Source: an uncultured Chloroflexia bacterium
Lineage (GTDB): Bacteria; Chloroflexota; Anaerolineae; CG2-30-64-16
NCBI GenBank assembly: GCA_963774265.1
Contig: CAVZDU010000006.1
Coordinates: forward strand, 256,001 to 320,000
Direction: 5' to 3'
DNA: 64,000 nucleotides
Shown here: piece after piece, positions 16,526 to 51,033 of the stretch
Layout: each line of letters opens with the position of its first letter
Position numbering within the stretch: the first letter of the stretch is position 1
The notes under the pieces: model-generated
Databases searched by the model: none
Seen by the model: only the letters and a program-made list of their open reading frames with translations
Told to the model about the DNA's origin: nothing
Program-made: the position numbers and the translations under genes

Positions 16526-16530
16526 ATTCG

Positions 16531-29825: not shown

Positions 29826-32800
29826 TCATCCTTTGGCATACGATACAGCATTGTCCACGCACATTCCCAGCTGTTTGCCCAAAATACGCGTGCCCGCTTC
29901 GTCGATGGGAACGTGATCGCCCACGATGTTGCGGTGGGTGCCAGGAATCTCATGAACTTCAACTGCGCCAATTGCCATCTTGCGCCAGCCAAGACGAGAA
30001 CTTTGAAGTGACTCTTTGGTGAGGAAGAGATGGAAACCGCCTGGATAGGGTTGGGGATGGTAACGCCGCAGATCCCAGATGTTGGCAAGCACCTTCAGCT
30101 TAAACCGGGTAAGGCTGACTAATTCGTCCAGGCCATGAGGACTATTTGGTTGACCTTCTCGATCGTGTCGATCGGCGGTCCCGGAGTTGCGTCTGAAACG
30201 GCGGCGAAAGCGAATCGCAAGGTCCTTGGCCAGATTACTATACGAGTTAGAACCCGGCAAACACAGCGGGGCCGGTTCGACCAGTGCCAGCATCGCAACG
30301 AGCTGACCCTGACGCCGAAGCTGCTGCGCCATCTCAAAAGCCACGGCGGCGCCGAGGCAACTGCCCGCCAGAAGATAAGGTCCGTTAGGCTGCATGGCCT
30401 GTATATCTTGGATGTAATGTGTTGCCAAGGCTTCAATTTGTGACGGATGCCCGATGCCATCCTGGAGACCGTAGAAGGGCTGATCGGAATCGAAATACCG
30501 GACCACGTATCTCAGATCGTTGAAGACATTTCCCATGTTGCCCGGCACGTAGTATAGCGGAAAACGGGATCGGCTGTCTCGCATCTTGACGACAGAAGTG
30601 TGTCTCCTCGGAGACTTGTCCTGATCCAGAAGATTAGCAAGCTGCTCAATGGTCGGAGCCTCAAAAATTGTGGCGAGGGGCAGCTTCTTACCGAAGACAT
30701 CAGCTATCTGGGTGAAGAGACGTGTCGCCAACAGAGAGCTCCCACCTAAATCAAAGAAGTTATCGTGGACGGTCAAGTTGTCCACACCGAGCAACCCTCG
30801 CCAGATATCCACAAGCGAGTGCTCCACTTTGGTACGGGGAGCACCTGCTCGGCGACTGCCGACAGTCTCTGCAGCGGTTAACCGATCGGCTTGAGAATTC
30901 GCTTCCGGTTCCTCAGATGAGCCTGGCGCCTTGGATGCTGCAGTGTATTGCAGTTGTGCCGGGTTGATCCAATATCTTCTGCGCTCAAAGGGATAGGTTG
31001 GCAGGGAGAGCCGGCCGCGCCGTTCGCCGGCGTAAAAACCGGACCAATCGATGGAGACGCCAGCCATCCAGAGCTGGCCTAATGTGCTCAGGATGTGGGC
31101 CTGGTCCGATGTTTGCTCGTTCGGATGGCGTGTGGAAGAAAGCATGATGTGATCTTCCGTCCTATTGGGATGCTGCTTGGACAACGCCTCGAGTGTCCGG
31201 CCCGGTCCCACCTCTAGAAAAATCCTGCCGGGCTCTTTGAGCAACTCTTGCAGGCCATCAGAAAAACGCACCGTCTGGCGAAGATGGGCAGCCCAGTAGC
31301 TCGGGCTGGTGGCTTCCTCCGAACTGATCCACGTCCCCGTAACATTAGACACGAAGGGAATGCTGGGCGGTCTTGGCCGGATCTGGTCGACCCGGGCCAT
31401 GAATGCATCCACAATCGGTTCCATCATCCTGGAATGAAAGGCATGAGAGGTATGCAACGGGCGACAGCTGATACCCGTCTCGGCAAGCTCCCGTTCCAAG
31501 ACCCCCACCGCCTGCCGCTCGCCCGATACTACACAGAGAGACGGCGCATTGACGACCGCCAGATCCAACTGTCCGTCGAGGAAGGGCTGGAGTTCCACTG
31601 GTGACAGGGGCACGGCAAGCATCGCGCCAGCTGGCAGTTCCTGCATGAGACGACCTCTGGCAACCACCAGGGACAGAGCGTCCTCCAACGAGAACACATC
31701 CGCCAGACAGGCCGCCACATATTCTCCGATACTGTGACCGATCATGGCTTGAGGGCGTATGCCCCAACTGAGCCAGAGCCTGGCCAGAGCGTATTCGATG
31801 ACAAAGAGGGCCGGCTGCGTAAACGCTGTCTGCTGTAGGATTTGCGCCGCCTCTTCCAGATTAGCATCCTTGGGATACAGAATCCCGCGCAAGTCACAGG
31901 ACAAAAGCGGTTTCAAGATCTCGGTGCAGTGGTCCACCTGTTGGCGAAATACCGGCTCACTATCGTAAAGACCCTGGCACATGTTGACGTACTGGGAGCC
32001 CTGACCCGAGAACATGAAGACGACCTCTCGCTCACGGGGCGCTTGAGTTGAAGTGATCACCTGCTTAGGATCGAGAGGGTCCAACGCAGATAGGGCATCC
32101 TCGACGCTCTGGCATACCAGCATCCTCCGTCTCTCGAAGGCTCGTCGCCCGGTCTGAAGCGTGAATGCAACATCGGCAAGATTGACATCAGGGTGCTGCC
32201 GGAGATGCCCAACCAGATTTTCGGTCGCCTGGGCCAGCGCAGCGTCAGACCTGGCAGAAAGCAGAAGGAGCTGGTGAGCTCTGCTGGACCCAGTGGGCTT
32301 AGCACGTGGGGCTTCTTCCAGGATGATGTGAGCATTCGTCCCGCCAAGCCCAAAGGAGCTGACCGCCGCCCGACGGGGTGTGGCGCCCGCGGGCCAGGGG
32401 GACAACTGGCTATTCACATAAAACGGGCTATTGACAAAGTCAATCTCCGGGTTGGGGCGCTCAAAGTTCAGGCTAGGCGGGATTTGGCCATGGTCAAGGG
32501 CAAGGACCGCCTTAATGACCCCGGCCACGCCGGCACCAGCATCGAGATGTCCGATATTAGTCTTAAGCGAACCGATGGGACAGTAGGCTTTCTTGTCCGT
32601 CCATCGCCGATAGGCCTCAGTCAGAGCGGCAATCTCAATCGGATCGCCCAGGGATGTCCCAGTTCCGTGGGCCTCAACGTACCCTATCGATTCGGGGGTG
32701 ACGTCGGCAACGGCGAGAGCCTCACTGATGACCCTGGCCTGGCCCTGGATGCTTGGGGCGGTAAATCCGACCTTCTGAGCTCCATCATTGTTAACGGCAG

Positions 32801-33635
32801 AGCCCTTGATCACGGCATATACGCGGTCACCATCCCGGATGGCCTCAGGCAGGCGCTTGAGTACGACCAGGGCGACGCCGCTGCCGCTGACTGTGCCACG
32901 GGCTTTAGCGTCAAAGGCCCGGCACTGACCATCAGGTGAATGAATGCCCCCTTCTTCATACTGATAGCCCGCCTTCAAGGGTACACCGATCCTGCCTCCG
33001 CCGGCCAGGGCCATATCACACTCATTGTTCAGTAGACTCTGACAGGCCATGTGGATGGCAACACCTGATGTCGAGCAAGCGGTGCCCACACTCACACTCG
33101 GTCCCGTCAGGTTTAATTTGAACGAAACCCGGGTGATCGCATACTCCTTTTCACTCGCGAGAAGCACCGCGTAGCGGCCGAGCAACTCAAGCATATCGGG
33201 TCTTGTTGCCAGGTTCCTCCGAAAATAGGTGTTCGGCCCCACGCCTGCGAAAACTCCAATCGGACCCGGGTAGCCTTCCGGATCGTAGCCCGCATCCTCG
33301 AGTGCTTCCCAAGCTGTCTCCAGAAGGACCCGGTGCTGGGGATCCATGATCTCGGCTTCTCGGGAGTTGATGCCAAAAAACGAGGCGTCAAAGGCGTCCG
33401 CGTCCGGCATGACCGCGCCGGCATTGACAAAAGACGGCTTTGCGAGCGTCATTTCGTCAACGCCGGATGCGGCTAATTCCTCTGCAGTGAACGGTCTGAT
33501 CGATCCAAGACCATCTCGCAGGTTGTGCCAGAACTCATCGACATTTCTGGCGTCAGGAAAACGACCAGCCATACCAATGATGGCTACGCCAAAGAGATCC
33601 TTGTCGCTGGCTGGTTCAAAGTCTTTCATTTGCAT
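29826..33635 (-). CDS. Monomodular type I PKS: KS-AT(malonyl)-ACP-TE
   Basis: KS TACSTS, EAHGTGT, NIGHL; AT GHSIG and HAFH; carrier FFDLGGSS; TE AGSCLG and PGTH; no KR or DH. Confidence 0.93.
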   Translation of the reverse strand: MQMKDFEPASDKDLFGVAIIGMAGRFPDARNVDEFWHNLRDGLGSIRPFTAEELAASGVDEMTLAKPSFVNAGAVMPDADAFDASFFGINSREAEIMDPQHRVLLETAWEALEDAGYDPEGYPGPIGVFAGVGPNTYFRRNLATRPDMLELLGRYAVLLASEKEYAITRVSFKLNLTGPSVSVGTACSTSGVAIHMACQSLLNNECDMALAGGGRIGVPLKAGYQYEEGGIHSPDGQCRAFDAKARGTVSGSGVALVVLKRLPEAIRDGDRVYAVIKGSAVNNDGAQKVGFTAPSIQGQARVISEALAVADVTPESIGYVEAHGTGTSLGDPIEIAALTEAYRRWTDKKAYCPIGSLKTNIGHLDAGAGVAGVIKAVLALDHGQIPPSLNFERPNPEIDFVNSPFYVNSQLSPWPAGATPRRAAVSSFGLGGTNAHIILEEAPRAKPTGSSRAHQLLLLSARSDAALAQATENLVGHLRQHPDVNLADVAFTLQTGRRAFERRRMLVCQSVEDALSALDPLDPKQVITSTQAPREREVVFMFSGQGSQYVNMCQGLYDSEPVFRQQVDHCTEILKPLLSCDLRGILYPKDANLEEAAQILQQTAFTQPALFVIEYALARLWLSWGIRPQAMIGHSIGEYVAACLADVFSLEDALSLVVARGRLMQELPAGAMLAVPLSPVELQPFLDGQLDLAVVNAPSLCVVSGERQAVGVLERELAETGISCRPLHTSHAFHSRMMEPIVDAFMARVDQIRPRPPSIPFVSNVTGTWISSEEATSPSYWAAHLRQTVRFSDGLQELLKEPGRIFLEVGPGRTLEALSKQHPNRTEDHIMLSSTRHPNEQTSDQAHILSTLGQLWMAGVSIDWSGFYAGERRGRLSLPTYPFERRRYWINPAQLQYTAASKAPGSSEEPEANSQADRLTAAETVGSRRAGAPRTKVEHSLVDIWRGLLGVDNLTVHDNFFDLGGSSLLATRLFTQIADVFGKKLPLATIFEAPTIEQLANLLDQDKSPRRHTSVVKMRDSRSRFPLYYVPGNMGNVFNDLRYVVRYFDSDQPFYGLQDGIGHPSQIEALATHYIQDIQAMQPNGPYLLAGSCLGAAVAFEMAQQLRRQGQLVAMLALVEPAPLCLPGSNSYSNLAKDLAIRFRRRFRRNSGTADRHDREGQPNSPHGLDELVSLTRFKLKVLANIWDLRRYHPQPYPGGFHLFLTKESLQSSRLGWRKMAIGAVEVHEIPGTHRNIVGDHVPIDEAGTRILGKQLGMCVDNAVSYAKG

Positions 33636-33772
33636 TCTCTATTTACGTTGTATCTGCATTGTCGCCACCGCAACATCGTCTCTCGACGCGCCTCTCCCCG
33701 ATCAACGCCTTTCTGTAAATTCACTACGATCAAAAGAATGCTCTCCTCTCCTGCCGCAAACCCTTGCGCTGC

Positions 33773-35707
33773 TTAGGGCGCCGGGGCCGTGGCTTGCGCC
33801 TGGAGGATGAGCGGCAGGAGGATACGATGCGGCTCGACCGTCAGCACAAAGGATGCGCTGGCCTCCAAATCTCCATCGCTCACAGTGATGGTGACTACTG
33901 CAGTGCCCACGATTCCCGGCTTGGGAGTGATAACCAGGGTGCGAGCCTTCCCAGTGCCGCCAAAAGTGACGCCGTTCAGCGGATCGACCAACGCCGGATT
34001 CGATGTGGTGAAGGTCAGGCTCAAGCTGGCGGCTGGCGTGTCGCTATCGTCGACGGTAAAGGGCACCGGTCCCACTGCAACGCCGGCCAGGGTGACCTGG
34101 TCAGGGATTGCGGAGATGGTTGGCCCGGCGTCGTTGGCCCCCGTGACGGTGATGATCACCTGAGCGCTATCCGTCAGGCCAACGGCGTCGGCAACCGTAT
34201 AGGTGAAGATATCCTCGGCCTGTTCGCCCGCGCCGAGAGAGTCGAACTCGCCGGCCGGGTCATAGTCGAAGGTGCCGTCGCCATTGTAAGTGAGTGTGCC
34301 GATCAGCGTGCTGTCGTCGTAGTTGATTAGGTTGATGGGGCCGCCGCCAGGGTCGCTGTCGTTGTTCAGCACATTCCCGGTCGTGAAAGCGGTTTCCTCG
34401 TCGGTGGTGTAGGTCGTGCCGCTGTCGTTGGCCGCAGCTGGGGGTGTCGTATCGACGGTCCAGGTGTAGGCAGCGGGGCTGGGGTCTGGGTTGCCGGCGC
34501 CATCGACCGCCCGCACCCTGAAGGTGCGGTTGCCATCGGTCAGGGCCGGGGTGGTGTAGGGGCTGGCGCAGGTGAACCAGCCACTGTTATCCAGTTGGCA
34601 CTCGAAGCCGGCCAGGCCGCTGCCGCCGGGATCGCTACCGGTGAAAGCAAAAGTGGGCGTGTTGTCCCGGTCCGGGTTGGGTGGGATGGCGGTGAGCGTG
34701 GTGTCGGGTGGGGTGGTGTCCGGGGGTGAGGGGAGGGTCATTTCGAATACCCTGCCATCGTTCTCCTCCGGATTCACGTCATTGTCGACGCCCCTGTCGC
34801 TGATGTAGATGTGCGTTACAGCAGGGTTCTGACTGCTGGGGCCAATGGTCAGGTCTGATGGGAGGATCGGATTTGCCGCCGAGATGTCGATCATCCAGAC
34901 CAAATTGCCACTCGTAGTCACCACCGCCACCATGTTGCTGAGTTGCTGGCCGCAGAGATACAGAAGGCCATTGGCGGGGTTGAAGGCGATACCCTCGAGT
35001 GCAGTAACCGCGAAGCCTGCCGTGTCGAAGCTTGTTACTTGATCATCTCCTTCAGGTGCGATGCCGTCAAACACACCGTTGGCGCCTGGCGTGACTTTGT
35101 AGACTTCGGCATTTGTATAGTCAGCGATGAAAAGCATGTCCAGGTCGGCCGAGTATGCAACGCCCAACGGTTTGAGACTGCCAAATGCTGCCGTGCCGAA
35201 AGACGTGATGGCGTCATCCAGCGTGCCATAGACCCCGTCAGCACCTGGGGCCATCTCAAAAACGCTGTCGGCATCGTCATCCACAAAGAAGAGATGCCCG
35301 TTATCGGGATTGAAGCTGACCCCCTCAGGCTCAGCTGAGAATGGTATCGTGCTTGAGGTGCGGATCACGTTGCCAGAAAGGCCGATTTCCCACAGATTGA
35401 CATCCGCATACAACAGCGGCATCTCTTCGATTTCAGAGTCGGAGATCAGCAGTCTGTTCGATGAGCTGAGGTATGCTATGCCTGTCGGGTCAGGACTGGG
35501 CGGGGAGAACTGCGAGGTATTGATGGTTCGCACCAGCGAAGCCACGTACGTGTCGGCTTCAGGAGCCGTAGGCTGGGCAGCCGGTTCCTCTTGTGCAAAG
35601 GCGGCTGAACTCATCGCAAATGAGAGGATCAAGACCAGCCCTACAAATGCCGCCAGCCGACCTGACGATGGAAATCTCACTGGATGGTGCGCATTCTTGT
35701 CCACCAT
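33773..35707 (-). CDS. Secreted beta-propeller (SdiA-regulated-like) protein with Ig/cadherin-like stalk and LLPLIL tail, copy A
   Basis: Signal AAFAQ; DPTGIAY/EPEGVSF/LEGIAF blades; DTTPPDTT Ig domain; DGTFDYDP...FTYTV cadherin-like domain. Confidence 0.8.
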   Translation of the reverse strand: MVDKNAHHPVRFPSSGRLAAFVGLVLILSFAMSSAAFAQEEPAAQPTAPEADTYVASLVRTINTSQFSPPSPDPTGIAYLSSSNRLLISDSEIEEMPLLYADVNLWEIGLSGNVIRTSSTIPFSAEPEGVSFNPDNGHLFFVDDDADSVFEMAPGADGVYGTLDDAITSFGTAAFGSLKPLGVAYSADLDMLFIADYTNAEVYKVTPGANGVFDGIAPEGDDQVTSFDTAGFAVTALEGIAFNPANGLLYLCGQQLSNMVAVVTTSGNLVWMIDISAANPILPSDLTIGPSSQNPAVTHIYISDRGVDNDVNPEENDGRVFEMTLPSPPDTTPPDTTLTAIPPNPDRDNTPTFAFTGSDPGGSGLAGFECQLDNSGWFTCASPYTTPALTDGNRTFRVRAVDGAGNPDPSPAAYTWTVDTTPPAAANDSGTTYTTDEETAFTTGNVLNNDSDPGGGPINLINYDDSTLIGTLTYNGDGTFDYDPAGEFDSLGAGEQAEDIFTYTVADAVGLTDSAQVIITVTGANDAGPTISAIPDQVTLAGVAVGPVPFTVDDSDTPAASLSLTFTTSNPALVDPLNGVTFGGTGKARTLVITPKPGIVGTAVVTITVSDGDLEASASFVLTVEPHRILLPLILQAQATAPAP

Positions 35708-35827
35708 TCAAAGCAACCCCTTTCAGGTTTGTGAATATCAAGAGGCGTGATAGTTACTTCACACAATTCGCAGTGGGCCCGGAAAATAAGCGAGAAGTGC
35801 TCACTGAGATAAAAGAATGCTCCCCTC

Positions 35828-35887
35828 TCCTGCTGCACGGCACCGGCTGCGTCGACTGTAGATCGCAGCCGGTGCCGTGCAGCAGGA
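35828..35887. terminator. Perfect 24-bp stem / 12-nt loop hairpin downstream of copy B
   Basis: TCCTGCTGCACGGCACCGGCTGCG (35828-35851) is the exact reverse complement of 35864-35887. Confidence 0.65.
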
Positions 35888-35909
35888 CCGCCGCAAGCCC
35901 TTGCGCTGC

Positions 35910-37865
35910 TTAGGGCGCCGGGGCTGCGGCTTGCGCCTGGAGGATGAGCGGCAGGAGGATACGATGCGGCTCGACCGTCAGCACAAAGGATGCGCTGGCC
36001 TCCAAATCCCCATCGCTCACAGTGATGGTGACTACTGCAGTGCCCACGATTCCCGGCTTGGGAGTGATAACCAGGGTGCGAGCCTTCCCAGTGCCGCCAA
36101 AAGTGACACCGTTCAGCGGATCGACCAACGCCGGATTCGATGTGGTGAAGGTCAGGCTCAAGCTGGCGGCTGGCGTGTCGCTATCGTCGACGGTAAAGGG
36201 CACCGGTCCCACTGCGACGCCGGCCAGGGTGACCTGGTCAGGGATTGCGGAGATGGTTGGCCCGGCGTCGTTGGCCCCCGTGACGGTGATGATCACCTGA
36301 GCGCTATCCGTCAGGCCAACGGCGTCGGCAACCGTATAGGTGAAGATATCCTCGGCCTGTTCGCCCGCGCCGAGAGAGTCGAACTCGCCGGCCGGGTCAT
36401 AGTCGAAGGTGCCGTCGCCATTATAAGTGAGTGTGCCGATCAGCGTGCTGTCGTCGTAGTTGATTAGGTTGATGGGGCCGCCGCCAGGGTCGCTGTCGTT
36501 GTTCAGCACATTCCCGGTCGTGAACGCGGTTTTCTCGTCGGTGGTGTAGGTTGTGCCGCTGTCGTTGGCCGCAGCTGGGGGTGTCGTATCGACGGTCCAG
36601 GTGTAGGCAGCGGGGCTGGGGTCTGGGTTGCCGGCGCCATCGACCGCCCGCGCCCTGAAGGTGCGGTTGCCGTCGGTCAGGGCCGGGGTGGTGTAAGGGC
36701 TGGCGCAGGTGAACCAGCCACTGTTATCCAGTTGGCACTCGAAGCCGGCCACGCCGCTGCCGCCGGGATCGCTACCGGTGAAAGCAAAAGTGGGCGTGTT
36801 GTCCCGGTCCGGGTTGGGTGGGATGGCGGTGAGCGTGGTGTCGGGTGGAGTGGTGTCCGAGGATGAGGGGAGGGTCATTTCGAATACCCTGCCGTCGTTC
36901 TCCTCCGGATTCACGTCATTGTCGACGCCCCTATCGCTGATGTAGATGTGCGTTACAGCGGGGTTCTGACTGCTGGGGCCAATGGTCAGGTCTGATGGAT
37001 TGATCGGATTTGCCGCCGAGATGTCGATCATCCAGGCCAAATTGCCACTCGTAGTCACCACCGCCACCATGTTGCTGGGTTGTTGGCCGCAGAGATACAG
37101 AAGGCCATTGGCGGGGTTGAAGGCGATGCCCTCAATTGCAGCGACTCCGAAACCTGCCGTGTCAAAACTTGTTACTTGATCATCTCCTTCAGGTGCGACG
37201 CCGTCAAACACACCGTTGGCGCCTGGCGTGACTTTGTAGACTTCGGCGTTTGTATAGTCAGCGATGAAAAGCATGTCCAGGTCGGCCGAGTATGCAACGC
37301 CCAACGGTTTGAGACTGCCAAATGCTGCCGTGCCGAAAGACGTGATGGCGTCATCCAGCGTGCCATAGACCCCGTCAGCACCTGGGGCCATCTCAAAGAC
37401 CGTAACTTGATCGTCATCCACAAAGAAGAGATGCCCGTTATCGGGATTGTAGCTGACCCCCTCTGGTTCGTAATATGCATAATACGGGAAAACGACCGTG
37501 CTTGAAGTGCGGAGCACGTTGCCAGAAAGGCCGATTTCCCACAGATTGACATCCGCATACAACAGCGGCATCTCTTCGATTTCAGAGTCGGAGATCAGCA
37601 GTCTGTTCGATGAGCTGAGGTATGCTATGCCTGTCGGGTCAGGACTGGGCGGGGAGAACTGCGAGGTATTGATGGTTCGCACCAGCGAAGCCACGTACGT
37701 GTCGGCTTCAGGGGCCGTGGGCTGGGCAGCCGGATCGTCCTGTGCAAAGGCGGCTGAACTCATCACTAACGAGAGGATCAAGATCAGCCCTACAAATACT
37801 GCCAACCGACCTGACGATGGAAATCTCACTGGATGACTCTCATACGTTTTCATCATTAGAAGCAA
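35910..37865 (-). CDS. Secreted beta-propeller + Ig/cadherin protein, copy B
   Basis: Paralog of copy A; start may be an ATG a few codons downstream. Confidence 0.8.
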   Translation of the reverse strand: MLLMMKTYESHPVRFPSSGRLAVFVGLILILSLVMSSAAFAQDDPAAQPTAPEADTYVASLVRTINTSQFSPPSPDPTGIAYLSSSNRLLISDSEIEEMPLLYADVNLWEIGLSGNVLRTSSTVVFPYYAYYEPEGVSYNPDNGHLFFVDDDQVTVFEMAPGADGVYGTLDDAITSFGTAAFGSLKPLGVAYSADLDMLFIADYTNAEVYKVTPGANGVFDGVAPEGDDQVTSFDTAGFGVAAIEGIAFNPANGLLYLCGQQPSNMVAVVTTSGNLAWMIDISAANPINPSDLTIGPSSQNPAVTHIYISDRGVDNDVNPEENDGRVFEMTLPSSSDTTPPDTTLTAIPPNPDRDNTPTFAFTGSDPGGSGVAGFECQLDNSGWFTCASPYTTPALTDGNRTFRARAVDGAGNPDPSPAAYTWTVDTTPPAAANDSGTTYTTDEKTAFTTGNVLNNDSDPGGGPINLINYDDSTLIGTLTYNGDGTFDYDPAGEFDSLGAGEQAEDIFTYTVADAVGLTDSAQVIITVTGANDAGPTISAIPDQVTLAGVAVGPVPFTVDDSDTPAASLSLTFTTSNPALVDPLNGVTFGGTGKARTLVITPKPGIVGTAVVTITVSDGDLEASASFVLTVEPHRILLPLILQAQAAAPAP

Positions 37866-38024
37866 CCCCTTTCAAATTCATGGATTTCTGGGCCTTTGTG
37901 GCCGCTTGCCGAGCGTATCCGTTTCCCCTATCAGGATGACAGGGATCAATTGAAGGCGATACACAAAAGATCCGTCTCGTCGGCTGATTATACGTTGCTC
38001 GTCGATATTCTGCGTACCTGCCTT

Positions 38025-41000: not shown

Positions 41001-41267
41001 GTCTTCAATCGTGAGACCGATATGGTTATGCACATCTTGCAAGGGCTCGCGAGTCCCCTCCCATCGGAAACTGGTTCGCAAGACAGGGTGTCTCATCAAG
41101 ACCTGTTCCCAGGCCCTCTGGAAGAGAGGAATGTTCAGTCCCTCATGCAACGAACAAAGCACCTGCTGCATGTACAACCCGGACTTGGGGTCGAGTTGAT
41201 ATTGAAACAGCATCGCCTGCTGCATAGGAGACAGCGGGTATGTATCTTCGACGTTCCCGGTTCTCAT
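38025..41267 (-). CDS. Monomodular NRPS C-A-T, A domain predicted to activate serine
   Basis: HHIIADG; YTSGSTGRPKG; FDVSVWEFFWPL, TTIHFVPSM, IICSGE and NLYGPTEAAVDVS give code DVWHISLVDK; T domain GGHSL. Start ATG 41267 (ORF open to 41339). Confidence 0.93.
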   Translation of the reverse strand: MRTGNVEDTYPLSPMQQAMLFQYQLDPKSGLYMQQVLCSLHEGLNIPLFQRAWEQVLMRHPVLRTSFRWEGTREPLQDVHNHIGLTIEDQDWRDLTSASQLSRFEQFLKLDRKRGFDLTQAPLMRLALFRIGDADYELVCTYHHIIADGWARHILVREVFAFYDAYCEGRDLELECPRPYRDHIDWLRQKGASGSEPYWRQLLKGFTAPIALDTISRTGSPNDGREKRGEREIRLAESTTSRLETVVRQHDLTLNALVQGAWALLLSRYADAEDVVFGAVRACRQSTIKGAGSIVGLFLNTLPVRVRISSGKNLVPWLEELREQHVAVRDHEQTPISHVMGWSDVPRGTPLFETIVVFDHARLNTRLRERGGRWLNREFSVIEDPAFALVLHAYGEPELLLRMLFDRRRFDDATIERMLAHLKTLLEGMADNLDRPMSDLPILTAAERHQLLVEWNHTRADYPPGICLHDLFEAQVKRAPEAVAVVFEGGQLTYGELNRRANQLAHYLQRHGVGPEVLVGVHMERTVEMVIALYGILKAGGAYVPLDPEYPADRVAFMLQDAQVQVLLTQKKWAASLPEHGAQVICLDFDWATVAQESADNPASRATAENLAYVIYTSGSTGRPKGVMNTHRGICNRLLWMQDAYRLTEADRVLQKTPFSFDVSVWEFFWPLLIGARLVVARPGGHKDSAYLVSTIIDQKITTIHFVPSMLQLFLEDKDVEACRSLKHIICSGEALPYDLQQRFFERLDAELHNLYGPTEAAVDVSYWQCRPEGDPSRVVPIGRPVANTQLYILDRNGLPSPIGVAGELYIGGVQVARGYLNRPELTAEKFVPDPFSKDPEARLFRTGDRVRYRSDGNIEFLGRLDFQVKVRGFRIELGEIEAVLSQHPAVREAVTLAREDVPGDKRLVAYVVPRPESPLRINELRDYLKERLPEYMVPAAFVRLEALPLTPNGKVSRQSLPAPRWEGQPEEAYSAPKDGLERAIAGIWQELLQVERVGVDDSFFDLGGHSLLIIQAHRRLSEVTDRELNITDMFRFPTIRALARYLSQDRGGGDQTTSQQGVDRGMARREAMMRRRQPR

Positions 41268-41351
41268 CTCCTCATTCTCCTGGGCAGGGCGAAACACTCC
41301 ACCACCGGCTGCTCTGGCGTAAGTCGCAATCCGCTCCACATTCGGATAGAC

Positions 41352-42218
41352 TTACGTTCGAACACCATATCTCCCATTTCCTCCCTCCAGGTCAAACAGG
41401 TTTCTGAATTGCGTCGAAGACATCAGGGGCCGTTCATGCGCTTCAGCCAGGAAATGGATACGCTTGAGCAAGTCCGCGTTCCGAGCTAGGCTGGTTCGCG
41501 CCTGATCGTACCAAATATTGTCCTCCAGGCCGACGCGCACCCCACCGCCCGCAACGATGGCAACCGAATTCATTGTCAATTGATAGTCACCTATACCGGC
41601 CAAGCTCCAATAAGCCCCTGGTGGCAGGTCTCGAATCATCAAGCCAGCATGTAGGAGATCTGCCTGAGCGCAAGCGATGTTTCCCAACAGCAGATTGAAG
41701 TAATGGGGAGCAGTGAGCAACTGTTTGCGCTCAAGATAGTGAGCGTAGTTGATCATCCCCAAATCAAACGCTTCCAGCTCGGGCTTGATGCCACGTTCTT
41801 TCATCGCGCTGGCTAACGCCTGGATCATGTCCGGGGCGTTCATGCTGGCCTGCTTATTGAAGTTGAGTGAGCTCAGTGTCAAGCTCCCCATATCAGGTTT
41901 AAGTGCGCCATCTAGCTGCAGAGGCTCTGCTCGCTTCTCGAATTCCTGAAAGTCTCGTCCGCTCAACGAGACACAGATCACCAACTCCGGTGCAAACTTG
42001 CGTATTCCTGCAATGATGTCTCCGTACAACTCGGCTTTGTATGTGGGCTTGCCTGTGGATTGATCCCTGGCGTGAAGATGTACCATTGTGATCCCAATCT
42101 CCCAGGCTTCTTGCACATCTTCCACGATCTCTGCCACGGTCACTGGGACGAATGGTGTCATCTCTTTGGTGGGTATCATCCCCGTCGGTGTAAAGTTGAT
42201 GATGAGGTTCTCGGCCAT
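41352..42218 (-). CDS. Beta-keto acid cleavage enzyme (BKACE / 3-keto-5-aminohexanoate cleavage enzyme family)
   Basis: VHLHARD, SLTLSSLNF, IKPELEAFD and GVRVGLEDN motifs; start ATG 42218 after AAGGAAG. Confidence 0.9.
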   Translation of the reverse strand: MAENLIINFTPTGMIPTKEMTPFVPVTVAEIVEDVQEAWEIGITMVHLHARDQSTGKPTYKAELYGDIIAGIRKFAPELVICVSLSGRDFQEFEKRAEPLQLDGALKPDMGSLTLSSLNFNKQASMNAPDMIQALASAMKERGIKPELEAFDLGMINYAHYLERKQLLTAPHYFNLLLGNIACAQADLLHAGLMIRDLPPGAYWSLAGIGDYQLTMNSVAIVAGGGVRVGLEDNIWYDQARTSLARNADLLKRIHFLAEAHERPLMSSTQFRNLFDLEGGNGRYGVRT

Positions 42219-42293
42219 GATTACTTCCTTTTTTCGACGATTCAACATCTGCCGTCGAGGTTTTCAGCCAGAAAAAGACGCAGCGTGACTTTG

Positions 42294-43295
42294 CTACCAG
42301 TTCTTGACACTGTCCTGCCTGACCCAACTTTCGAGGTCCAAGTTCTGCTCCTGGATCCAGGCGATGTATCGGTCCAGTCCGGTGTCGATATCCGTCTCGG
42401 CCACGAAGCCAAGCTCCTGCTTTGCCTTCGTGACGTCGGCCAGGATCTTCTCGATGTCAGCGGGCCGGTCCTCGTGGAGGTACAATGGCTCGATATCCGT
42501 GCGGCCGAGCTTCTTGAGAATGAGCTGGCAGAGGGTGGTGATATCCACGTCCTGCCCGCGGGCCAGGTTCACGGCTTGCCCCACCAGCGCATCGCTCTCG
42601 GCAGCCAGGAGGATGCCCCGGACGATATCGTCGACATAGGTGAAGTCCCGCGACTGCTTGCCGTTGCCAAAGATCACCGGCCTAAGCCCCGCCATCGTTC
42701 GGAACATGAATCTGGGGATGACTTCGGCCCTGGTTCCCTCCGACTGCTCGCGTGGGCCGTAGGTATTAAAGAGTCGCACGATTGAAATGGGCAGGCCGTA
42801 TGTCTTGTAGTAACTCAGGGCGTATAGCTCGCCCGCTGCCTTGGCCGCCCCGTAAACGTTGGTCGGCCGCATGGGGTGATTCTCATCGAGCGGATAATAG
42901 AGGGCGCTGCCGTAAACTTCTCCTGTGGAGACATATAGGAACCGCTCGACCTTGTTCTGCAATGCCGCCTGGCACATATATAGGGAACCGGTGGCGACGA
43001 CCTCGTGCGCCCGGATGGGATCGTGCAGGCCGGTGCGCAAACAAATGACGGCCAGGTGCAAGATGACGTCCACACCCTGTGCCAGACGCACCATCTCGTC
43101 CCGATCGCAGATGTCGGCCCGCTCAATCTGAACCTGCGGCTTGCCCCGGTGATGGGCAATGTACTCCTCTTTGCCGAAGGAGAAATCATCCACGATCACC
43201 ACCTGGTTGTCGTTGGCCACGAGACGGTCCACCAGGTGACTCCCGATGAACCCGGCACCGCCCGTCACCATCACTCGTTTACCCGTCAATTTCAT
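42294..43295 (-). CDS. NAD-dependent nucleotide-sugar epimerase/dehydratase
   Basis: TGGAGFIGSH, YGAAK, FNTYGPRE and RDFTYV motifs. Confidence 0.9.
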   Translation of the reverse strand: MKLTGKRVMVTGGAGFIGSHLVDRLVANDNQVVIVDDFSFGKEEYIAHHRGKPQVQIERADICDRDEMVRLAQGVDVILHLAVICLRTGLHDPIRAHEVVATGSLYMCQAALQNKVERFLYVSTGEVYGSALYYPLDENHPMRPTNVYGAAKAAGELYALSYYKTYGLPISIVRLFNTYGPREQSEGTRAEVIPRFMFRTMAGLRPVIFGNGKQSRDFTYVDDIVRGILLAAESDALVGQAVNLARGQDVDITTLCQLILKKLGRTDIEPLYLHEDRPADIEKILADVTKAKQELGFVAETDIDTGLDRYIAWIQEQNLDLESWVRQDSVKNW

Positions 43296-43346
43296 GAGTT
43301 GTTACCTTTCTGCGCATGAGATTCTGTTGGTGTGAAATGCCATCCA

Positions 43347-44090
43347 TTAGCCGGCGCTCTTGCGACGCAGGACCATGAGGGGTGTTTGTACCATGATCTT
43401 GAGGTCAAGCCAGAGGGACCGATGCTCGACATAGTAAAGGTCCAACTCGATCATTTCCTGATAGTCCATCTTGCAGTGGCCAGCGACCTGCCACAGCCCC
43501 GTGAGCCCGGGTGTTGCGGCCAGCCGTTGGCGCTGCCGAGGACTGTACATCTCCCATTCATAGAGGGTCGGCGGCCGCGGGCCAACCAGGCTCATATCTC
43601 CGATGAGCACATTCCAGAGCTGCGGCAGCTCGTCAAGGCTGGTCTTGCGCAGAAGCCGACCCATGCGGGTGATCCGGGCGTCACCGGCCAAGGCGGAGGC
43701 TGCCGTCTGAGGGACATTGGAAGCGGCCGTGTCGTTTTGCCTCTCCTCAAGGAGCTTGCGGACCAGATCGCGGTGGGCCTGGGGATCGGTGTCCTTATGC
43801 ATGGTGCGAAACTTATAGAACGTGAACGGCTCGACCTGCACCTCTGCGTCGAACCCCTCTGCCTTGCGCCGCCGGGTTACTCGCGGTTGTTTGAATATAG
43901 CCGGTCCTGGGCTGTCGAACACCACCAGCAAGGCAATAAGGAGCATGACCGGCGCCAGCACGAGTAAGGCAACCGACACAACCGATACGTCAAGGAGTCT
44001 TTTGCACGCCAGGTAGATCCACTGGCGTTCGCCCTGCTCTGCAATCGGAATTGGATCGTCGGAGGCTTGTTGACTGTAGGTTTGTGTCAT
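43347..44090 (-). CDS. Phosphoglycosyl transferase (Bac_transf)
   Basis: [34 protein letters not shown] and PGLTGLWQV motifs. Confidence 0.93.
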
Positions 44091-45364
44091 GCCTTTGCGG
44101 TCCTTTCCTCGTGGTGGATGTCCGGCTCTTTCCAGGGCTCAGCAGGAAGGGAACGGGATGGTCGCTCCGGGTCATGTGCTAACACCAACCGATGACTGTT
44201 CTCGTCGAGCGTAAGAGTGCCCCACACCAGGCGAGGGTCCTGGGCTCCGGCGACGTCCCCCGAGCGAACGCGCCACCAGCGAGCTGCCTCACTCGGCAAA
44301 GCATGCCAGTACCCATTTTGTTCCTTCATCTCCCGGAGCAGGCTGGCATAAACCTGCCAGGTGATCGGGTCGCGCAGATAGTCAGGATGCGTGTTCATCA
44401 GCGCCAGGCCCGAGTACTGCTTGATGAACTCGATTTTTTGCAGCCACACCCGCGGCGTTTTCTCACCCAGGGTCCGCACCAGGGTGTAATCCTGCACCAT
44501 GGTAAGCGGCAGCTCGAGGAGCTTGCCCACCCTAAACGGCCAGATGCACATCGTGCCCCCGGGAACGGGCTCGTACGGATCGGTATCGAAGAATGACAGA
44601 TCGTATTCGACGTCCAGGACCTGCATCCACTCCGGCTGGCGATGAAAGAGAGGCGTGCGAAAGCCCACCGCGCCCAAGGCACGCAGGTGATCGTTGATCC
44701 GCCGCGCTCGTCGCTCAAACTCGGCGCGCGAGCGAAACAAATGTCCATCGTGTTTGAGCCCGTGAACCCCAATCTCGAACCCGCGCGTGCGCAACTCATC
44801 CATGAGGGCAAGATCCAGGGGATAACGCTCCGCGACGAAGTTAAAACTGGATCGAAACCCCAGGCTTTCCTCCAAATCCGCTACCGCCCGCACAAAGGCC
44901 TGGCCCTGGGCTGTCTCGATGTCGTGAGTCAGCACGAACGCGAACTGGCAGCCATCGGGCCAGAAATGGCGGTACCTGATGGATGGGTGGCTGCTGCCGA
45001 GCAACACGTCCAACATCACCTGCCACAAGAAGCGGACATATCGATCCTCGATGGGCCAGCCGAGAACAAACTCCCGGGAGGCGGAGCGGCTGTGGATTCG
45101 CCGCAGGAGGGCGATGAGCGGTCGTGGCATGAACGGCTTGACCCGGTAGTACATCCGCCGCGGATAACTCAGCCGCCAGTGGTCCGGGCCAAACTGGCCT
45201 TCGCCCAGGACAAGTGCCAGTAGCTCGTCCACGTCGTGTGGCTGAAGGGACAGACCCAAGACAGGGAGCGCCCGCTGGATTGCCGCTTTCCACTGATCCT
45301 CCGGAACACCAGGCTGGGGGAGCCAAAAATGTGCCGGGGTATTGGAACTCCAAAGGTTCGTCAT
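44087..45364 (-). CDS. Polysaccharide deacetylase-like (NodB/CE4 fold) protein
   Basis: LTHDIE, EIGVHGLKH, GFRTP, YDLS and THPDY motifs. Confidence 0.8.
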   Translation of the reverse strand: MTNLWSSNTPAHFWLPQPGVPEDQWKAAIQRALPVLGLSLQPHDVDELLALVLGEGQFGPDHWRLSYPRRMYYRVKPFMPRPLIALLRRIHSRSASREFVLGWPIEDRYVRFLWQVMLDVLLGSSHPSIRYRHFWPDGCQFAFVLTHDIETAQGQAFVRAVADLEESLGFRSSFNFVAERYPLDLALMDELRTRGFEIGVHGLKHDGHLFRSRAEFERRARRINDHLRALGAVGFRTPLFHRQPEWMQVLDVEYDLSFFDTDPYEPVPGGTMCIWPFRVGKLLELPLTMVQDYTLVRTLGEKTPRVWLQKIEFIKQYSGLALMNTHPDYLRDPITWQVYASLLREMKEQNGYWHALPSEAARWWRVRSGDVAGAQDPRLVWGTLTLDENSHRLVLAHDPERPSRSLPAEPWKEPDIHHEERTAKA

Positions 45365-46185
45365 TATCCGTCCTCAACATTATAACGAGCCAGGATTGAG
45401 CTTCCAGCCTTGACGTAGTCGCCTGGCGTCACCTCAATCTTTACATCCTCTCGGTCCGGAATAATGATGGCAACCAGCGAACCGAACCGGATCATGCCCA
45501 ACCGTTGTCCTGCACCTACGGTGTCTCCCACTTTCAGATAGGTCTGAACGCATCGCACAAGGCGCGAGGCGATCTGAACAACGCCGACGTTCAGGGAATC
45601 ACCCTCGATGACGGTCGTGGCGCGCTCGTTAACAAATGGCGCCTCGTCTCTCCGCAAGGATATGAACTTGCCGGCGATATGCTTTGTCAACTTGACTTGG
45701 CCAGGAATCGGGCACCGGTTTACATGCACATCCAGCAAGCTCATGCCCACTCCAACCACGTGGACCGCACTCGTCGCCAGGGCAGTGCCTGTGAGCTCGT
45801 CAAGACGGTAGTCCCTTCCACCCTTGCTCACCACCGTCGTCGCGTCCTCAGCAATATGCCAGACATACGCTACCTCTCCATCCGCAGCAGACAGAACAAC
45901 CCCGTTCATCTCGGGTGGGACGCGCTCCGGATCTCTCCAGAAACGTCGCAGGACCAGGAACAATGCGAAGACAAGAGCAGCTGATATCTGACCGACGGCA
46001 ATGATACCAAGACCAAACACCGACCTGGCCAGGGGATAGATCCAGATAAACGGCAAAGCTGTCAGAACCACGGTAACTGCTATTCCGACCAAGGCCTGTC
46101 GCTTCGGCAAATCCCACTTCATCGCCAATGCTGACATAAGTAGCCCGGAAAGTGCAGCGCCGAGGGCCGTTAGTTCTAAGCTCAT
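45364..46185 (-). CDS. psd: Phosphatidylserine decarboxylase-family (pyruvoyl) proenzyme with N-terminal TM segments
   Basis: FWRDPER, SAADGEV, DVHVNRCP, NER and GMIRFGS cleavage motif. Confidence 0.85.
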   Translation of the reverse strand: MSLELTALGAALSGLLMSALAMKWDLPKRQALVGIAVTVVLTALPFIWIYPLARSVFGLGIIAVGQISAALVFALFLVLRRFWRDPERVPPEMNGVVLSAADGEVAYVWHIAEDATTVVSKGGRDYRLDELTGTALATSAVHVVGVGMSLLDVHVNRCPIPGQVKLTKHIAGKFISLRRDEAPFVNERATTVIEGDSLNVGVVQIASRLVRCVQTYLKVGDTVGAGQRLGMIRFGSLVAIIIPDREDVKIEVTPGDYVKAGSSILARYNVEDG

Positions 46186-46211
46186 ATTAGCCTCACAACC
46201 TCGGAGACCAT

Positions 46212-47393
46212 CTAGAACCCCCTGTTCGACAAGTAGTTATAGGGACCGAGAAACAGGTCAGCTATGAATGGCAGGGGATCGCGAAAGGAGAGCACTGCGT
46301 CCTCTATATCACCAGACATAGATGTCAAGTACTGGCGTAGGGTCAGTCGACCGGACAGAATCTCAGAGGCAACTGTGGGAATGTCCGTCACGAGCCGGAC
46401 CCACTTTACGTTCTCACGGGCTGAACCGACTGGCGCTTCCTTTCCGGCAGCGTGGGCGTAGGCCAGGTAGGGTAGATCAAGCCCGGCGCGAATCGCAATA
46501 GTGTGCCAGCCCCAAATTCTGGGATTGACCTCCAGGAACTCAAATCGCCCATCTTTGCTATCGTACATGAATTCGACCTCGGCCAGGCCAGTGAAGGCGA
46601 TGCCCGTCAGCAATTGGGTCGCCAGCTTCTCCAATTCGGGAACGTTGACGGTCTCAACGTAGGTGCTGGCCCGGCCAAATTCCATCGGGTGTTGGCGCCG
46701 CCGTCTCGCTGACAGACCGGCAATCGGTGTGCCATCCCTAAAGAACCCGACGTATGAATACAGACTCTCAGCCCCGCCGGGGATAAGCTCCTGGATCAGG
46801 ATCTCAGATGGTTTCATGATTTCGGTGGTTTGCCTATAGAGACTGATGAGTTCTTCCTGATTGTTCGCCCGATATGCTTTTTTCTTGGTGGCAGCCATGA
46901 AATGCTTGCTTACAGTGGGTTTGATAACCAATGGAAAATCCAGGTTTAGCGACATGAGTTCATTCACGTCCCGCGGATTGCAGGTCTTGGGAATAGGTAC
47001 TGCCTGCTCTTCGGCTAACCGCTGGGTGAGCCGTTTATCGTATAGGAACTGGACAGTCTCCCATGGCGGAACCGTGACGAGGTAGCGCTCGCTTATGCGC
47101 CTCCAATGCTGCGCCAGTATTCTTACCGAGTCGTCGGTGCTGGGGAAAAGGACCCAACCATCCATGTTCTTCTCCGCAGCAATTCGCAGAAGGAACTCGA
47201 CGAAACCAGCTTCATCGTCAAACGATGGGCACCTCAGGAAACTCCTCACGTATCTTGAGAACTGGCTGACACAGACCCCGTTGTCTAGAACGCACACGGG
47301 CACGCCGTGTTTGGCCAAATTTCGAGCCGCTCCCAGGCTGTGAAAGCCGCCGCCGATAATCACGGCCCCGGGTTCTCTGCTGCTTCGACTCAT
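46212..47393 (-). CDS. ATP-grasp carboxylate-amine ligase (D-aspartate-ligase-like)
   Basis: FPLVIKP, IQELIPGG, RRRQHPMEFG and EVNPRIWGW motifs. Confidence 0.85.
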   Translation of the reverse strand: MSRSSREPGAVIIGGGFHSLGAARNLAKHGVPVCVLDNGVCVSQFSRYVRSFLRCPSFDDEAGFVEFLLRIAAEKNMDGWVLFPSTDDSVRILAQHWRRISERYLVTVPPWETVQFLYDKRLTQRLAEEQAVPIPKTCNPRDVNELMSLNLDFPLVIKPTVSKHFMAATKKKAYRANNQEELISLYRQTTEIMKPSEILIQELIPGGAESLYSYVGFFRDGTPIAGLSARRRRQHPMEFGRASTYVETVNVPELEKLATQLLTGIAFTGLAEVEFMYDSKDGRFEFLEVNPRIWGWHTIAIRAGLDLPYLAYAHAAGKEAPVGSARENVKWVRLVTDIPTVASEILSGRLTLRQYLTSMSGDIEDAVLSFRDPLPFIADLFLGPYNYLSNRGF

Positions 47394-48664: not shown

Positions 48665-48729
48665 GCCTTAGTCTCCTTCTTGCCCCAGGTTCAACTACGA
48701 ATTGCACGACGATGCATCTTCGATATCCA

Positions 48730-51017: not shown

Positions 51018-51033
51018 CGGTCCCTCTATGTTG

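Follow-up and report, generated by a model that had tools for sequence, protein, structure and literature searches.

The stretch from the ATP-grasp gene to the PKS gene of the window (the whole 64,000-nucleotide stretch analysed here) is tentatively read as a horizontally acquired, conserved module within a Wzx/Wzy operon, whose product would be an acyl group derived from serine and destined for a glycoconjugate of the cell envelope. The gene block suggests an undescribed route of surface-sugar decoration. It contains an NRPS/PKS pair which, as judged from sequence, belongs to a large uncharacterised family in which the Ser code is fixed, the AT is of the malonyl type and most thioesterases use Cys.

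ORF prediction and Pfam searches placed all named genes, co-oriented, on the minus strand (Table 1), as the earlier note on this DNA had described. The glycosyltransferase, flippase, polymerase and chain-length genes form the upstream part of the same run, and a Wzx/Wzy-dependent polysaccharide locus (priming transferase, glycosyltransferases, flippase, polymerase, chain-length protein) is complete on one strand. The priming transferase listed is the second of two in the operon, the other copy being located at 58116-58871. From the ATP-grasp gene through the NRPS gene, successive genes overlap or are separated by gaps of 13-52 nt; the two surface-protein genes lie between the NRPS and PKS genes and are flanked by gaps of 138-203 nt. 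An IS66 transposase is encoded at 1746-3119.

Table 1. Coordinates of the co-oriented genes in the window.
Feature	Coordinates	Strand	Details
PKS KS-AT-ACP-TE	29826..33635	-	type I, 1269 aa; Pfam
Secreted NHL-repeat/Big_9 surface protein B	33773..35707	-	644 aa, signal peptide; Pfam
Secreted NHL-repeat/Big_9 surface protein A	35910..37865	-	651 aa, tandem paralogue of B; Pfam
NRPS C-A-T	38025..41339	-	Condensation 302 bits, AMP-binding 337, PP-binding 53 (Pfam)
BKACE (DUF849)	41352..42248	-	PF05853
Extended SDR nucleotide-sugar epimerase/dehydratase	42294..43295	-	333 aa; Pfam
Bac_transf small polyprenyl-phosphate glycosylphosphotransferase	43347..44090	-	247 aa; Pfam, NCBIfam
Divergent CE4/NodB-type deacetylase	44087..45364	-	425 aa; family profile vs PDB
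PS_Dcarbxylase (PSD) homologue	45364..46185	-	273 aa, membrane-bound; PF02666 137 bits
ATP-grasp ligase	46212..47393	-	393 aa; Pfam, NCBIfam
Three GT4s, Wzx flippase, Wzy-like polymerase, Wzz-like chain-length protein	47432..55448	-	Pfam, NCBIfam

The best NCBIfam matches of the SDR protein were LegB-like, RmlB and GalE, all below their cut-offs. The deacetylase gave no Pfam match as a single sequence; its family profile matched the CE4 enzymes 3rxz (1.2e-14) and 3qbu (3.3e-8) in the PDB, which upholds the earlier deacetylase call, as a divergent CE4, even though Pfam is silent. H201 and H205 are invariant in the family and T146-H147-D148 nearly so; we take these conserved His and Asp residues to be the Asp/His/His metal site. 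Nine of ten longer relatives are fused to a GT4, indicating that CE4 relatives act with glycosyltransferases. The PSD-like protein has a candidate FGS self-cleavage site (residues 234-236) and falls below the cut-off in all 15 NCBIfam PSD models (best score 159 bits vs 183). Surface proteins A and B are 92% identical over 434 aa; A also matches the NCBIfam tandem-95 repeat and VCBS domain, and the C-terminus of B reads ...HRILLPLILQAQATAPAP. Exosortase PF09721 was not found in the window genome (84% complete) nor in the Nitrospirota genome discussed below. Pfam scanning of the ORFs within 29.8-47.4 kb returned no transporter, regulator or resistance gene, consistent with the earlier remark that no exporter or resistance gene was visible.

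The longest NRPS reading frame has 1104 aa; the database copy begins at Met25 and has 1080 aa. The C domain carries HHIIADG and the T domain a GGHS attachment site, and HHxxxDG is intact in 31 of 34 aligned family members. The ten specificity positions of the A domain, taken from the HMMER alignment, read DVWHISLVDK, identical to the code given previously, and predict Ser. This code is found in 30 of the 34 members, is assigned to Ser in PMC12964202, and is one position off the EntF code quoted in PMC3795760. The protein ends in a basic, docking-like tail (...DRGMARREAMMRRRQPR), and a similar tail occurs in most of the 34 sequences. In apparently full-length members the C domain is preceded by a few to about 25 residues; this short N-terminus, with no upstream NRPS partner, fits an acyl-CoA or acyl-ACP donor for the C domain. 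The best PDB matches of the C domain were McyB C1 (379 bits) and PvdL (287 bits), and the surfactin synthetase entries 2vsq and 8f7f scored about 240 bits each.

The PKS matched the Pfam models ketoacyl-synt (236 bits), Acyl_transf_1 (180), PP-binding (59) and Thioesterase (69) and the PDB entry 8xju (871 bits). It is a malonyl-specific non-reducing module, with a condensing-type KS bearing the active Cys (TACSTS), a malonyl-type AT (GHSIGE, HAFH) and an ACP; KR, DH and ER are absent by Pfam and alignment, and the interval from AT to ACP spans only about 120 aa. HAFH is kept in 91 of 92 PKS family members. The malonyl AT, the missing KR and the docking-like NRPS tail had been described before and were all recovered here. 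The genes are not fragments of a larger cluster: the line is self-contained, with the only Condensation match in the whole 5.5 Mb genome and the only one of four ketoacyl-synt matches that lies inside a PKS-sized frame (about 1270 aa), hence the sole C domain and the sole type I PKS. A candidate Sfp-type PPTase is present elsewhere in the genome.

In the alignment, the nucleophile of the window TE is Cys, within the motif GSCLG (GxCxG). Across 92 family members the nucleophile was Cys in 64, Ser in 25 and another residue in 3, and it was Cys in all close PKS relatives listed in the motif survey. The L101-type TE has no His in the alignment column that holds the His of the window TE. Pks13 TE chains were among the weak matches (29 bits), a likeness confined to the general TE fold; the Pks13 TE delivers a beta-ketoacyl chain to trehalose. 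According to PMC6668435, a GXCXG TE moves its chain by transthioesterification, and the known enzymes of this kind, ObiF (PMC6668435) and SulM, are cyclising enzymes. The window TE resembles them in having Cys for Ser in the nucleophile motif and in a predicted substrate with a Ser-type hydroxyl (PMC6668435). Unlike the window TE, those of ObiF and SulM end NRPS modules and make four-membered rings; the window TE comes after the ACP of a PKS, with the hydroxyl expected to lie four carbons further from the thioester.

The BKACE protein matched PF05853 with 260.3 bits (cut-off 24.8) over profile positions 2-274 of 274, and its HLH and GLEDN motifs are identical in the aligned structures 3no5, 3chv and 3fa5; we take these to be the metal-binding and catalytic motifs of DUF849. 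In this it resembles Kce and BsfD, that is, in a full-length PF05853 match with HxH and GLEDN aligned to solved DUF849 proteins. It falls under the NCBIfam cut-offs of every named BKACE function, including the Kce equivalog NF052387 (223 bits vs 382), the 3-oxoadipate enzyme (199 bits vs 350) and the dioxohexanoate enzyme. Unlike Kce and BsfD, its clade sits in glycan clusters beside LbH acyltransferases: 77 NRPS-free loci likewise carry a member of this clade, as a rule next to LbH or GNAT acyltransferases in such clusters. Immediate neighbours included Hexapep (14 of 93) and GT2 (7 of 93) proteins, those at positions 2-3 included GT1/GT4 and GT2 (8 of 124 each) and DegT (4 of 124), and in 17 loci a PglD-like LbH gene on the same strand lies no more than 1.5 kb away. 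In the tree, the four BKACEs linked to an NRPS group together (aLRT 93), with an LbH-linked pair as sister (98). The nearest relatives (83% identity) have a PglD-like acyltransferase in their loci, which are free of NRPS and PKS (in L104, across the visible 1 kb of upstream and 6.7 kb of downstream sequence), so the BKACE substrate is probably the same with or without the line. This glycan-cluster context was not met in a full-text literature search on BKACE that covered main texts, and the occurrence of relatives of 70-76% identity typically in glycan clusters beside acyltransferases offers a lead to a non-catabolic BKACE function.

Two BKACE roles had been put forward. Supply of the starter fits better, given the 77 NRPS-free loci with LbH or GNAT genes beside BKACE; the role of making an N-acyl-seryl-CoA donor fits less well. 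In the latter arrangement BKACE would act after the line on the released beta-keto acid, either canonically, giving N-acyl-seryl-CoA and acetoacetate, or by BsfD-like C-acetylation and decarboxylation to a 1,3-diketone. The line product would indeed be a beta-keto acid, the substrate class of BKACE, whose gene directly precedes that of the NRPS in four loci, and bioRxiv 10.64898/2026.01.15.699783 gives a precedent within a biosynthetic cluster, the BKACE homologue BsfD of flavophos synthesis, in which acetylation of a beta-keto acid replaces its cleavage. We regard action after the line as improbable, since the nearest relatives occur with PglD-like acyltransferases in loci without the line, canonical cleavage would merely reverse the PKS step, and orthologous NRPS/PKS pairs occur without BKACE.

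Of 80 metagenome loci retrieved through BKACE, 3 conserve the block, at 50-92% identity. In L100 the order is GT4, ATP-grasp, PSD, CE4, priming transferase, SDR, BKACE and NRPS at 72-92% identity (SDR 92%, ATP-grasp 83%, PSD-like 75%, priming transferase 74%). In L102 it is CE4, priming transferase, SDR, PPTase, BKACE and NRPS, with the PPTase inserted between SDR and BKACE (SDR 68%, priming transferase 50%). L101 has BKACE, adjacent NRPS and PKS genes, CE4 and an NHL protein, the last being a homologue of surface protein B (64-67%) downstream of the PKS. BKACE is the gene directly before the NRPS in all four loci (window, L100, L101, L102). Orthologous NRPS (62%) and PKS (56%) genes were also found in an XrtA-type EPS locus of the Nitrospirota genome G721, where they immediately follow pepcterm_export, ChnLen, TyrKin and ATPase genes, each above its NCBIfam cut-off, and a PPTase gene; the PKS there ends in Acetyltransf_9 (GNAT; 26.6 bits, cut-off 25) instead of a TE. 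The NRPS/PKS family is large and extends over several phyla, and in each NRPS or PKS search the best 120 matches include dozens of homologues that stand alone and exceed 50% identity.

BKACE is absent from the G721 locus, and for seven further putative NRPS/PKS pairs, matched through contigs of identical length, no close BKACE was seen on those contigs among the 120 BKACE relatives listed. Starter supply by BKACE therefore cannot be general, and the earlier view of BKACE as a part of the NRPS/PKS system does not hold as an obligatory one. The proposed functional tie of the line to glycan genes was strengthened by the recurring block in L100 and L102, by L101 and by the EPS locus of G721; attachment of the product to a glycan is what we infer from synteny at five loci, the window included. 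Incidental juxtaposition, by which a small mobile NRPS/PKS cassette would have been inserted in a variable polysaccharide locus with no functional tie, would suit the status of such loci as gene-gain hot spots, the lack of NRPS and BKACE orthologues in all 40 relatives of the window genome (which also marks these genes as acquired), the IS66 transposase and the interruption of the NRPS-PKS pair by surface-protein genes. It is considered very unlikely, in view of the same neighbours in three other contigs, other EPS genes in another phylum, and co-oriented genes from ATP-grasp to NRPS with overlapping or near-abutting ends.

In the preferred reading, still a tentative one, the starter would be an acyl-CoA made by BKACE, from which the line would assemble an N-acyl-Ser-ketide thioester for transfer by the TE to a lipid-linked sugar that has lost its N-acetyl group. 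We infer each chemical step below, and likewise the acceptor and which acyl-CoA is used. The SDR enzyme and the small priming transferase would load a HexNAc-type sugar phosphate onto polyprenyl phosphate, and the CE4 enzyme would strip the N-acetyl group and expose the amine. BKACE would convert a beta-keto acid and acetyl-CoA to an acyl-CoA, with which the N-terminal C domain would N-acylate T-bound Ser. The KS would then add one malonyl unit and, because there is no KR, the keto group would be retained, giving N-acyl-4-amino-5-hydroxy-3-oxopentanoyl-S-ACP. Finally, the Cys-TE would accept the chain as a thioester and hand it to the sugar amine or hydroxyl, a step that the GNAT domain would take over in the Nitrospirota relative. 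The known GXCXG thioesterases cyclise, and transfer to an amino sugar is without established precedent for this type.

The core layout, contrary to the earlier statement that no pathway of this layout had been described, is already known, because MucD/MucE share its order and logic. According to PMC10161427, MucD/MucE and RtcN/RtcK (mutanocyclin, reutericyclin) extend an N-acyl amino acid by one malonate; like the window line, they comprise a stand-alone C-A-T NRPS and then a one-module, KR-less PKS ending in a TE, a likeness of architecture. The amino acid is Ser in the window and Leu in theirs, the AT is integrated in the window and loading is in trans in MucE (KS-ACP-TE), and the window TE, unlike that of MucE, has a Cys nucleophile. 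Unlike the mutanocyclin cluster, the window provides an EPS operon with BKACE, CE4 deacetylase and priming transferase, and the ORFs scanned from 1.7 to 63.9 kb revealed neither MucABC-type C-3 acetylation genes (no thiolase, HMG-CoA synthase or DUF35 family) nor a MucF deacylase.

From this likeness comes the main rival to glycan decoration, a free reutericyclin-type tetramate, which we hold to be possible and on the unlikely side. As with MucD/MucE, malonate would extend an N-acyl-Ser, an N-acyl-5-hydroxymethyl tetramic acid (lactam), or a six-membered lactone formed via the Ser hydroxyl, would be released by the Cys-TE, and the EPS location would reflect co-regulated or co-transferred biofilm traits; such a small molecule is rated doubtful. 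The domain order equals that of MucD (C-A-PCP) and MucE (KS-ACP-TE), makers of a free tetramate (PMC10161427); the known GXCXG enzymes, ObiF and SulM, cyclise; and the wide phyletic spread of the family and the seven contig-matched pairs with no BKACE among the relatives listed point the same way. Against it stand the gene-by-gene synteny that L100 and L102 maintain with the priming transferase, SDR and CE4 genes, at protein identities of 50-92%, the placement of the L102 PPTase between SDR and BKACE, the absence of an exporter, immunity gene or pathway regulator, and that of MucABC-type acetylation genes among the window ORFs scanned. The GNAT in place of the TE in G721 also points to transfer onto an amine, away from cyclisation.

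Glycan decoration has parallels in envelope chemistry. In Nod factor acylation, the NodB deacetylase is followed by the acyltransferase NodA, with the carrier protein NodF and the KS NodE. By analogy with this pathway and with LpxC/LpxD, a sugar may here be de-N-acetylated by a CE4-type or related enzyme and its amine re-acylated with a carrier-built chain; unlike those systems, the window has no NodA or LpxD homologue; an NRPS-PKS line would build the chain, and a TE or GNAT domain would deliver it. In its widest form the proposal is speculative: it would be the first NRPS-PKS decoration of a polysaccharide, in which a carrier-built Ser beta-ketoacyl unit is passed to a de-N-acetylated lipid-linked sugar by a Cys-TE or, in other phyla, a GNAT domain, with the widespread and highly conserved BKACE clade as a general source of non-standard acyl-CoA for sugar acylation in glycan clusters, its acyl-CoA going to LbH acyltransferases in most bacteria and, in this case, to the C domain of an NRPS. 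If true, the glycans of uncultured bacteria that are widespread in soil and sediment would carry a new class of substituent. The fixed Ser code, malonyl AT, mostly Cys-type TE and many stand-alone homologues make the family tractable for heterologous expression. Carrier-protein-bound acyl or aminoacyl groups go to envelope glycopolymers or sugars in the Dlt and AlmEFG systems, and such chemistry has so far been described in simple adenylation/carrier systems of this kind. Dlt and Alm, unlike the window line, operate without C, KS or TE domains, and a glycan-attached product would extend carrier-protein envelope chemistry to a full C-A-T/KS-AT-ACP-TE line.

The earlier note's co-oriented run of minus-strand genes was borne out by an ORF list and Pfam scans (see table). 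Neighbouring genes from ATP-grasp to NRPS overlap or lie 13-52 nt apart, and the surface-protein genes are flanked by gaps of 138-203 nt; scanning 29.5-48.8 kb for promoters and terminators gave counts equal to those of shuffled sequence and was uninformative on operon structure. The ten specificity positions of the NRPS A domain read DVWHISLVDK, a code for which Ser is predicted in a 2026 paper (PMC12964202) and which differs at one position from the Ser code given for EntF in PMC3795760. In the PKS, GHSIGE and HAFH were identified in the AT domain and TACSTS in the KS domain, and a KR was absent. Because of this domain set and established NRPS/PKS rules, the colinear product of the line would be N-acyl-4-amino-5-hydroxy-3-oxopentanoyl-S-ACP. 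A basic tail closes the NRPS, and similar tails occur in most of the 34 family members aligned. Among sequencing runs, one DNA run matched a share of 0.07 of the words sampled, and no RNA run was listed as containing them.

Genes of the polysaccharide operon that includes the NRPS and PKS
Feature	Position	Strand	Assignment
Bac_transf, first copy	58116-58871	minus	Pfam
GFO/IDH/MocA oxidoreductase, apparently split	57046-58141	minus	Pfam
Hexapeptide acetyltransferase	56546-57049	minus	Pfam
DegT aminotransferase	55450-56376	minus	Pfam
Wzz-like, Wzy-like, Wzx, three GT4s	47432-55448	minus	Pfam
ATP-grasp	46212-47393	minus	Pfam
PSD-like	45364-46185	minus	Pfam
425-aa protein, no Pfam match	44087-45364	minus	
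Bac_transf, second copy	43347-44090	minus	Pfam
SDR epimerase/dehydratase	42294-43295	minus	Pfam
BKACE	41352-42248	minus	Pfam
NRPS C-A-T	38025-41339	minus	Pfam
Two NHL/Big_9 proteins	35910-37865, 33773-35707	minus	Pfam
PKS KS-AT-ACP-TE	29826-33635	minus	Pfam

The oxidoreductase, DegT and hexapeptide acetyltransferase genes form a WbpB/WbpE/WbpD-like trio at 55450-58871. The oxidoreductase is present as two overlapping frames (57335-58141 and 57046-57651) and about 50 profile positions are missing at the N-terminal end of the DegT ORF, features that may reflect frameshifts or assembly errors. A second polysaccharide locus, on the same strand as the NRPS/PKS operon, occupies 4003-19989. It contains DegT, SDR, a Bac_transf of 590 aa, GT4s (one double), an ATP-grasp of RimK type, a histidine phosphatase, an enolase-C-like protein and a flippase of the Polysacc_synt_3 family. 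Positions 1746-3119 encode an IS66 transposase.

The possibility, raised in the earlier note, that the NRPS and PKS are fragments of a larger cluster was rejected because the genome (5.5 Mb, 10 contigs, 84% complete by marker genes) contains a single Condensation-domain match and, among four ketoacyl-synt matches, a PKS-sized frame for only one. The PPTase for the line may be encoded by a 256-aa frame that has an ACPS match and lies elsewhere in the genome. When 40 genomes from the same genus, family and class were compared, NRPS matches were obtained in 15 (best identity 49%), the frames of all those listed above E = 1e-250 exceeded 1150 aa, and no orthologue of the NRPS or of the BKACE (best identity 32%) was found. 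An NRPS search of 400 genomes from the window's own phylum likewise yielded no orthologue and only matches at 46%, the one inspected (genome G320) being multimodular; the corresponding BKACE search of 400 genomes produced one close match, at 68%. The line is therefore read as both complete and acquired.

A BKACE scan of metagenome contigs gave 80 loci, and tblastn with all window proteins showed that the window arrangement recurs in the three whose BKACEs are most similar to the window's (85-89%). Contig L100 carries GT4 (77% identity to the window), ATP-grasp (83%), PSD (75%), the 425-aa protein (74%), Bac_transf (74%), SDR (92%), BKACE (89%) and NRPS (72%), at which the contig ends. Contig L102 carries a 447-aa Polysacc_deac_1 protein, Bac_transf (50%), SDR (68%), an Sfp-type PPTase, BKACE (86%) and NRPS (71%), and also ends there. 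In contig L101, BKACE (85%), NRPS (73%) and PKS (69%) are directly adjacent, and the genes that follow encode a 425-aa-protein homologue (60%) and an NHL protein (64-67%). Only L100 and the window have kept the ATP-grasp and PSD-like genes, whose products may, by analogy with other capsule systems, join Ser to a uronic acid through an amide bond and then decarboxylate the product. An NRPS scan of genome contigs returned 80 further loci, all at 55% identity or less and all lacking BKACE; almost all were multimodular or cut by a contig end, and they were set aside as uninformative on this family.

NHL surface-protein genes were found in the neighbourhood of two loci and between NRPS and PKS in the window only; the NHL/Big_9 pair separates the two genes in the window, and in L101 they are adjacent. 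The pair (33773-37865) is a recent tandem duplication, with 92% identity over 434 aa. Both surface proteins and an 894-aa secreted protein (27104-29788) share a short hydrophobic C-terminal motif (..LLPLILQ.., ..HLPVILR..), which may be a sorting signal. A loose version of the pattern was present in 14 of the 7043 ORFs of at least 150 aa in the genome, about half of which have the exact end ..(Y/F)LP(L/I)(I/V)(L/M)(R/K) and an apparent signal peptide at the start.

BKACE relatives at 73-92% identity are very numerous, and the window BKACE scored below the cut-off of every named NCBIfam BKACE function. The NRPS-free clade L103-L179, 70-83% identical to the window's BKACE, is typically found in glycan clusters (e.g. 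L104:415-2003), which suggests BKACE-fed sugar acylation independent of any NRPS. The 93 immediate neighbours in these 77 loci included 14 Hexapep, 7 GT2, 3 flippases, 3 PglD_N, several GNATs and 2 DegT, and the 124 neighbours at positions 2-3 of the BKACE included 8 GT1/GT4, 8 GT2, 6 methyltransferases, 4 DegT, 2 FdtA and 2 Bac_transf. In 17 loci the BKACE had a PglD-like LbH gene on its own strand within 1.5 kb, many loci being too short to show neighbours. Weak A-domain matches (23-32% identity) a few kb downstream in two NRPS-free loci (L134:6064-7434 and L167:18390-19946) may be acyl-CoA ligases. In a quick IQ-TREE analysis of 79 sequences, the four NRPS-linked BKACEs formed one group (aLRT 93), with the LbH-linked pair L103/L104 as sister (98). 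We infer from these contexts that the enzyme would do the same job in NRPS and LbH settings, providing a neighbouring acyltransferase with an acyl-CoA, and that in the NRPS-linked sub-clade this acyltransferase would be the NRPS C domain. Action of BKACE downstream of the line, either canonical or BsfD-like (bioRxiv 10.64898/2026.01.15.699783), is less likely in view of the clade's inferred role as acyl-CoA supplier with and without NRPS.

An exhaustive search with the 425-aa protein recovered 2014 relatives, and a 40-sequence profile matched solved CE4 deacetylases (3rxz, 1.2e-14; 3qbu, 3.3e-8). H201 and H205 are invariant in the family and T146-H147-D148 nearly so; fusion to GT4, in either domain order, was observed in nine of ten longer relatives scanned (P0241, P0242 and P0245 among them). 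The CE4 call was weakly supported by the protein atlas. Judged by these sequence features, the protein is a CE4 deacetylase working with glycosyltransferases.

Among the matches listed in protein searches, stand-alone C-A-T proteins (~1010-1115 aa, 54-78% identity) were many, their sources being metagenomes as well as MAGs with Nitrospirota, Acidobacteriia or Anaerolineae labels, and KS-AT-ACP-TE proteins (~1250-1320 aa, 51-78% identity) were equally common. Seven contig sizes common to both lists (62268, 64685, 31271, 11293, 15622, 16966 and 17690) indicate that both genes lie on the same contigs, and none of these sizes occurred among the best 120 BKACE relatives listed. The exact DVWHISLVDK code was conserved in 30 of 34 aligned NRPS members and an intact HHxxxDG in 31. 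In seemingly full-length members of this alignment, the conserved part of the C domain begins after only a few to about 25 residues, and therefore no upstream docking partner is expected. HAFH was present in 91 of 92 PKS members, in which the TE nucleophile column held Cys (64), Ser (25) or another residue (3); all close orthologues among those listed have Cys. The NRPS/PKS pair represents a broad and uncharacterised family.

With only 2-3 candidates scored per genome, so that misses are possible, no orthologue was found in 300 genomes from the phylum of genome G440 or in 250 from that of genome G1044, and a single orthologue-bearing genome, the Nitrospirota-type G721, was found among 300 from the phylum to which G439 belongs (its locus L032 bears the title Nitrospiraceae). 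The G721 NRPS (62% identity, 1105-aa frame) is preceded on the same strand by pepcterm_export (NCBIfam 238 bits versus a cut-off of 180), pepcterm_ChnLen (445 versus 279), pepcterm_TyrKin (236 versus 231), a GGDEF protein, pepcterm_ATPase (385 versus 325), an Sfp-type PPTase and a nitroreductase-like protein, and is followed by a PKS (56%) of KS-AT-ACP-Acetyltransf_9 type with no TE. On these family assignments it is an XrtA/PEP-CTERM-type EPS locus. The GNAT-like Acetyltransf_9 domain (26.6 bits) takes the place of the thioesterase at the C-terminus of this PKS (L194:4051-8001, G721:C14). No BKACE or other window glycan gene was detectable in the 19 kb upstream, and the 383-aa gene before the NRPS was ruled out as a BKACE analogue, as it looks nitroreductase-like in the protein atlas. 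An exosortase/PEP-CTERM link for the window was dropped, PF09721 having been found in neither the window's genome nor G721. The earlier note had tied its proposal to homologues accompanied by both glycan genes and BKACE; the pair does occur without BKACE, in G721, and the glycan association stood, every locus with a visible upstream flank (window, L100, L102 and G721) being a glycan locus.

Five loci point to a product that would be handed to a de-N-acetylated, lipid-linked sugar. The main rival is release of a free tetramate or lactone in the fashion of MucD/MucE, which have the same architecture as the line (PMC10161427); the GXCXG TEs known so far cyclise (PMC6668435). Five features favour transfer to the sugar: the conserved block includes both a CE4 deacetylase and a second, dedicated priming transferase; L102 has an inserted PPTase gene amid its sugar genes; the G721 PKS carries a GNAT domain in place of the TE; the TE uses Cys, a nucleophile that preserves the thioester; and an exporter is absent.

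A search of the literature on NRPS, PKS, exopolysaccharide, Wzx and glycosyltransferase clusters gave nothing relevant by title or abstract. Embedding in EPS loci of two phyla, the BKACE partner and the Cys-TE/GNAT alternation were not found in the literature searched, which included full text on BKACE but no subscription journals or supplements, and prior description is possible. The core NRPS-PKS layout is already known from reutericyclin/mutanocyclin-type clusters.
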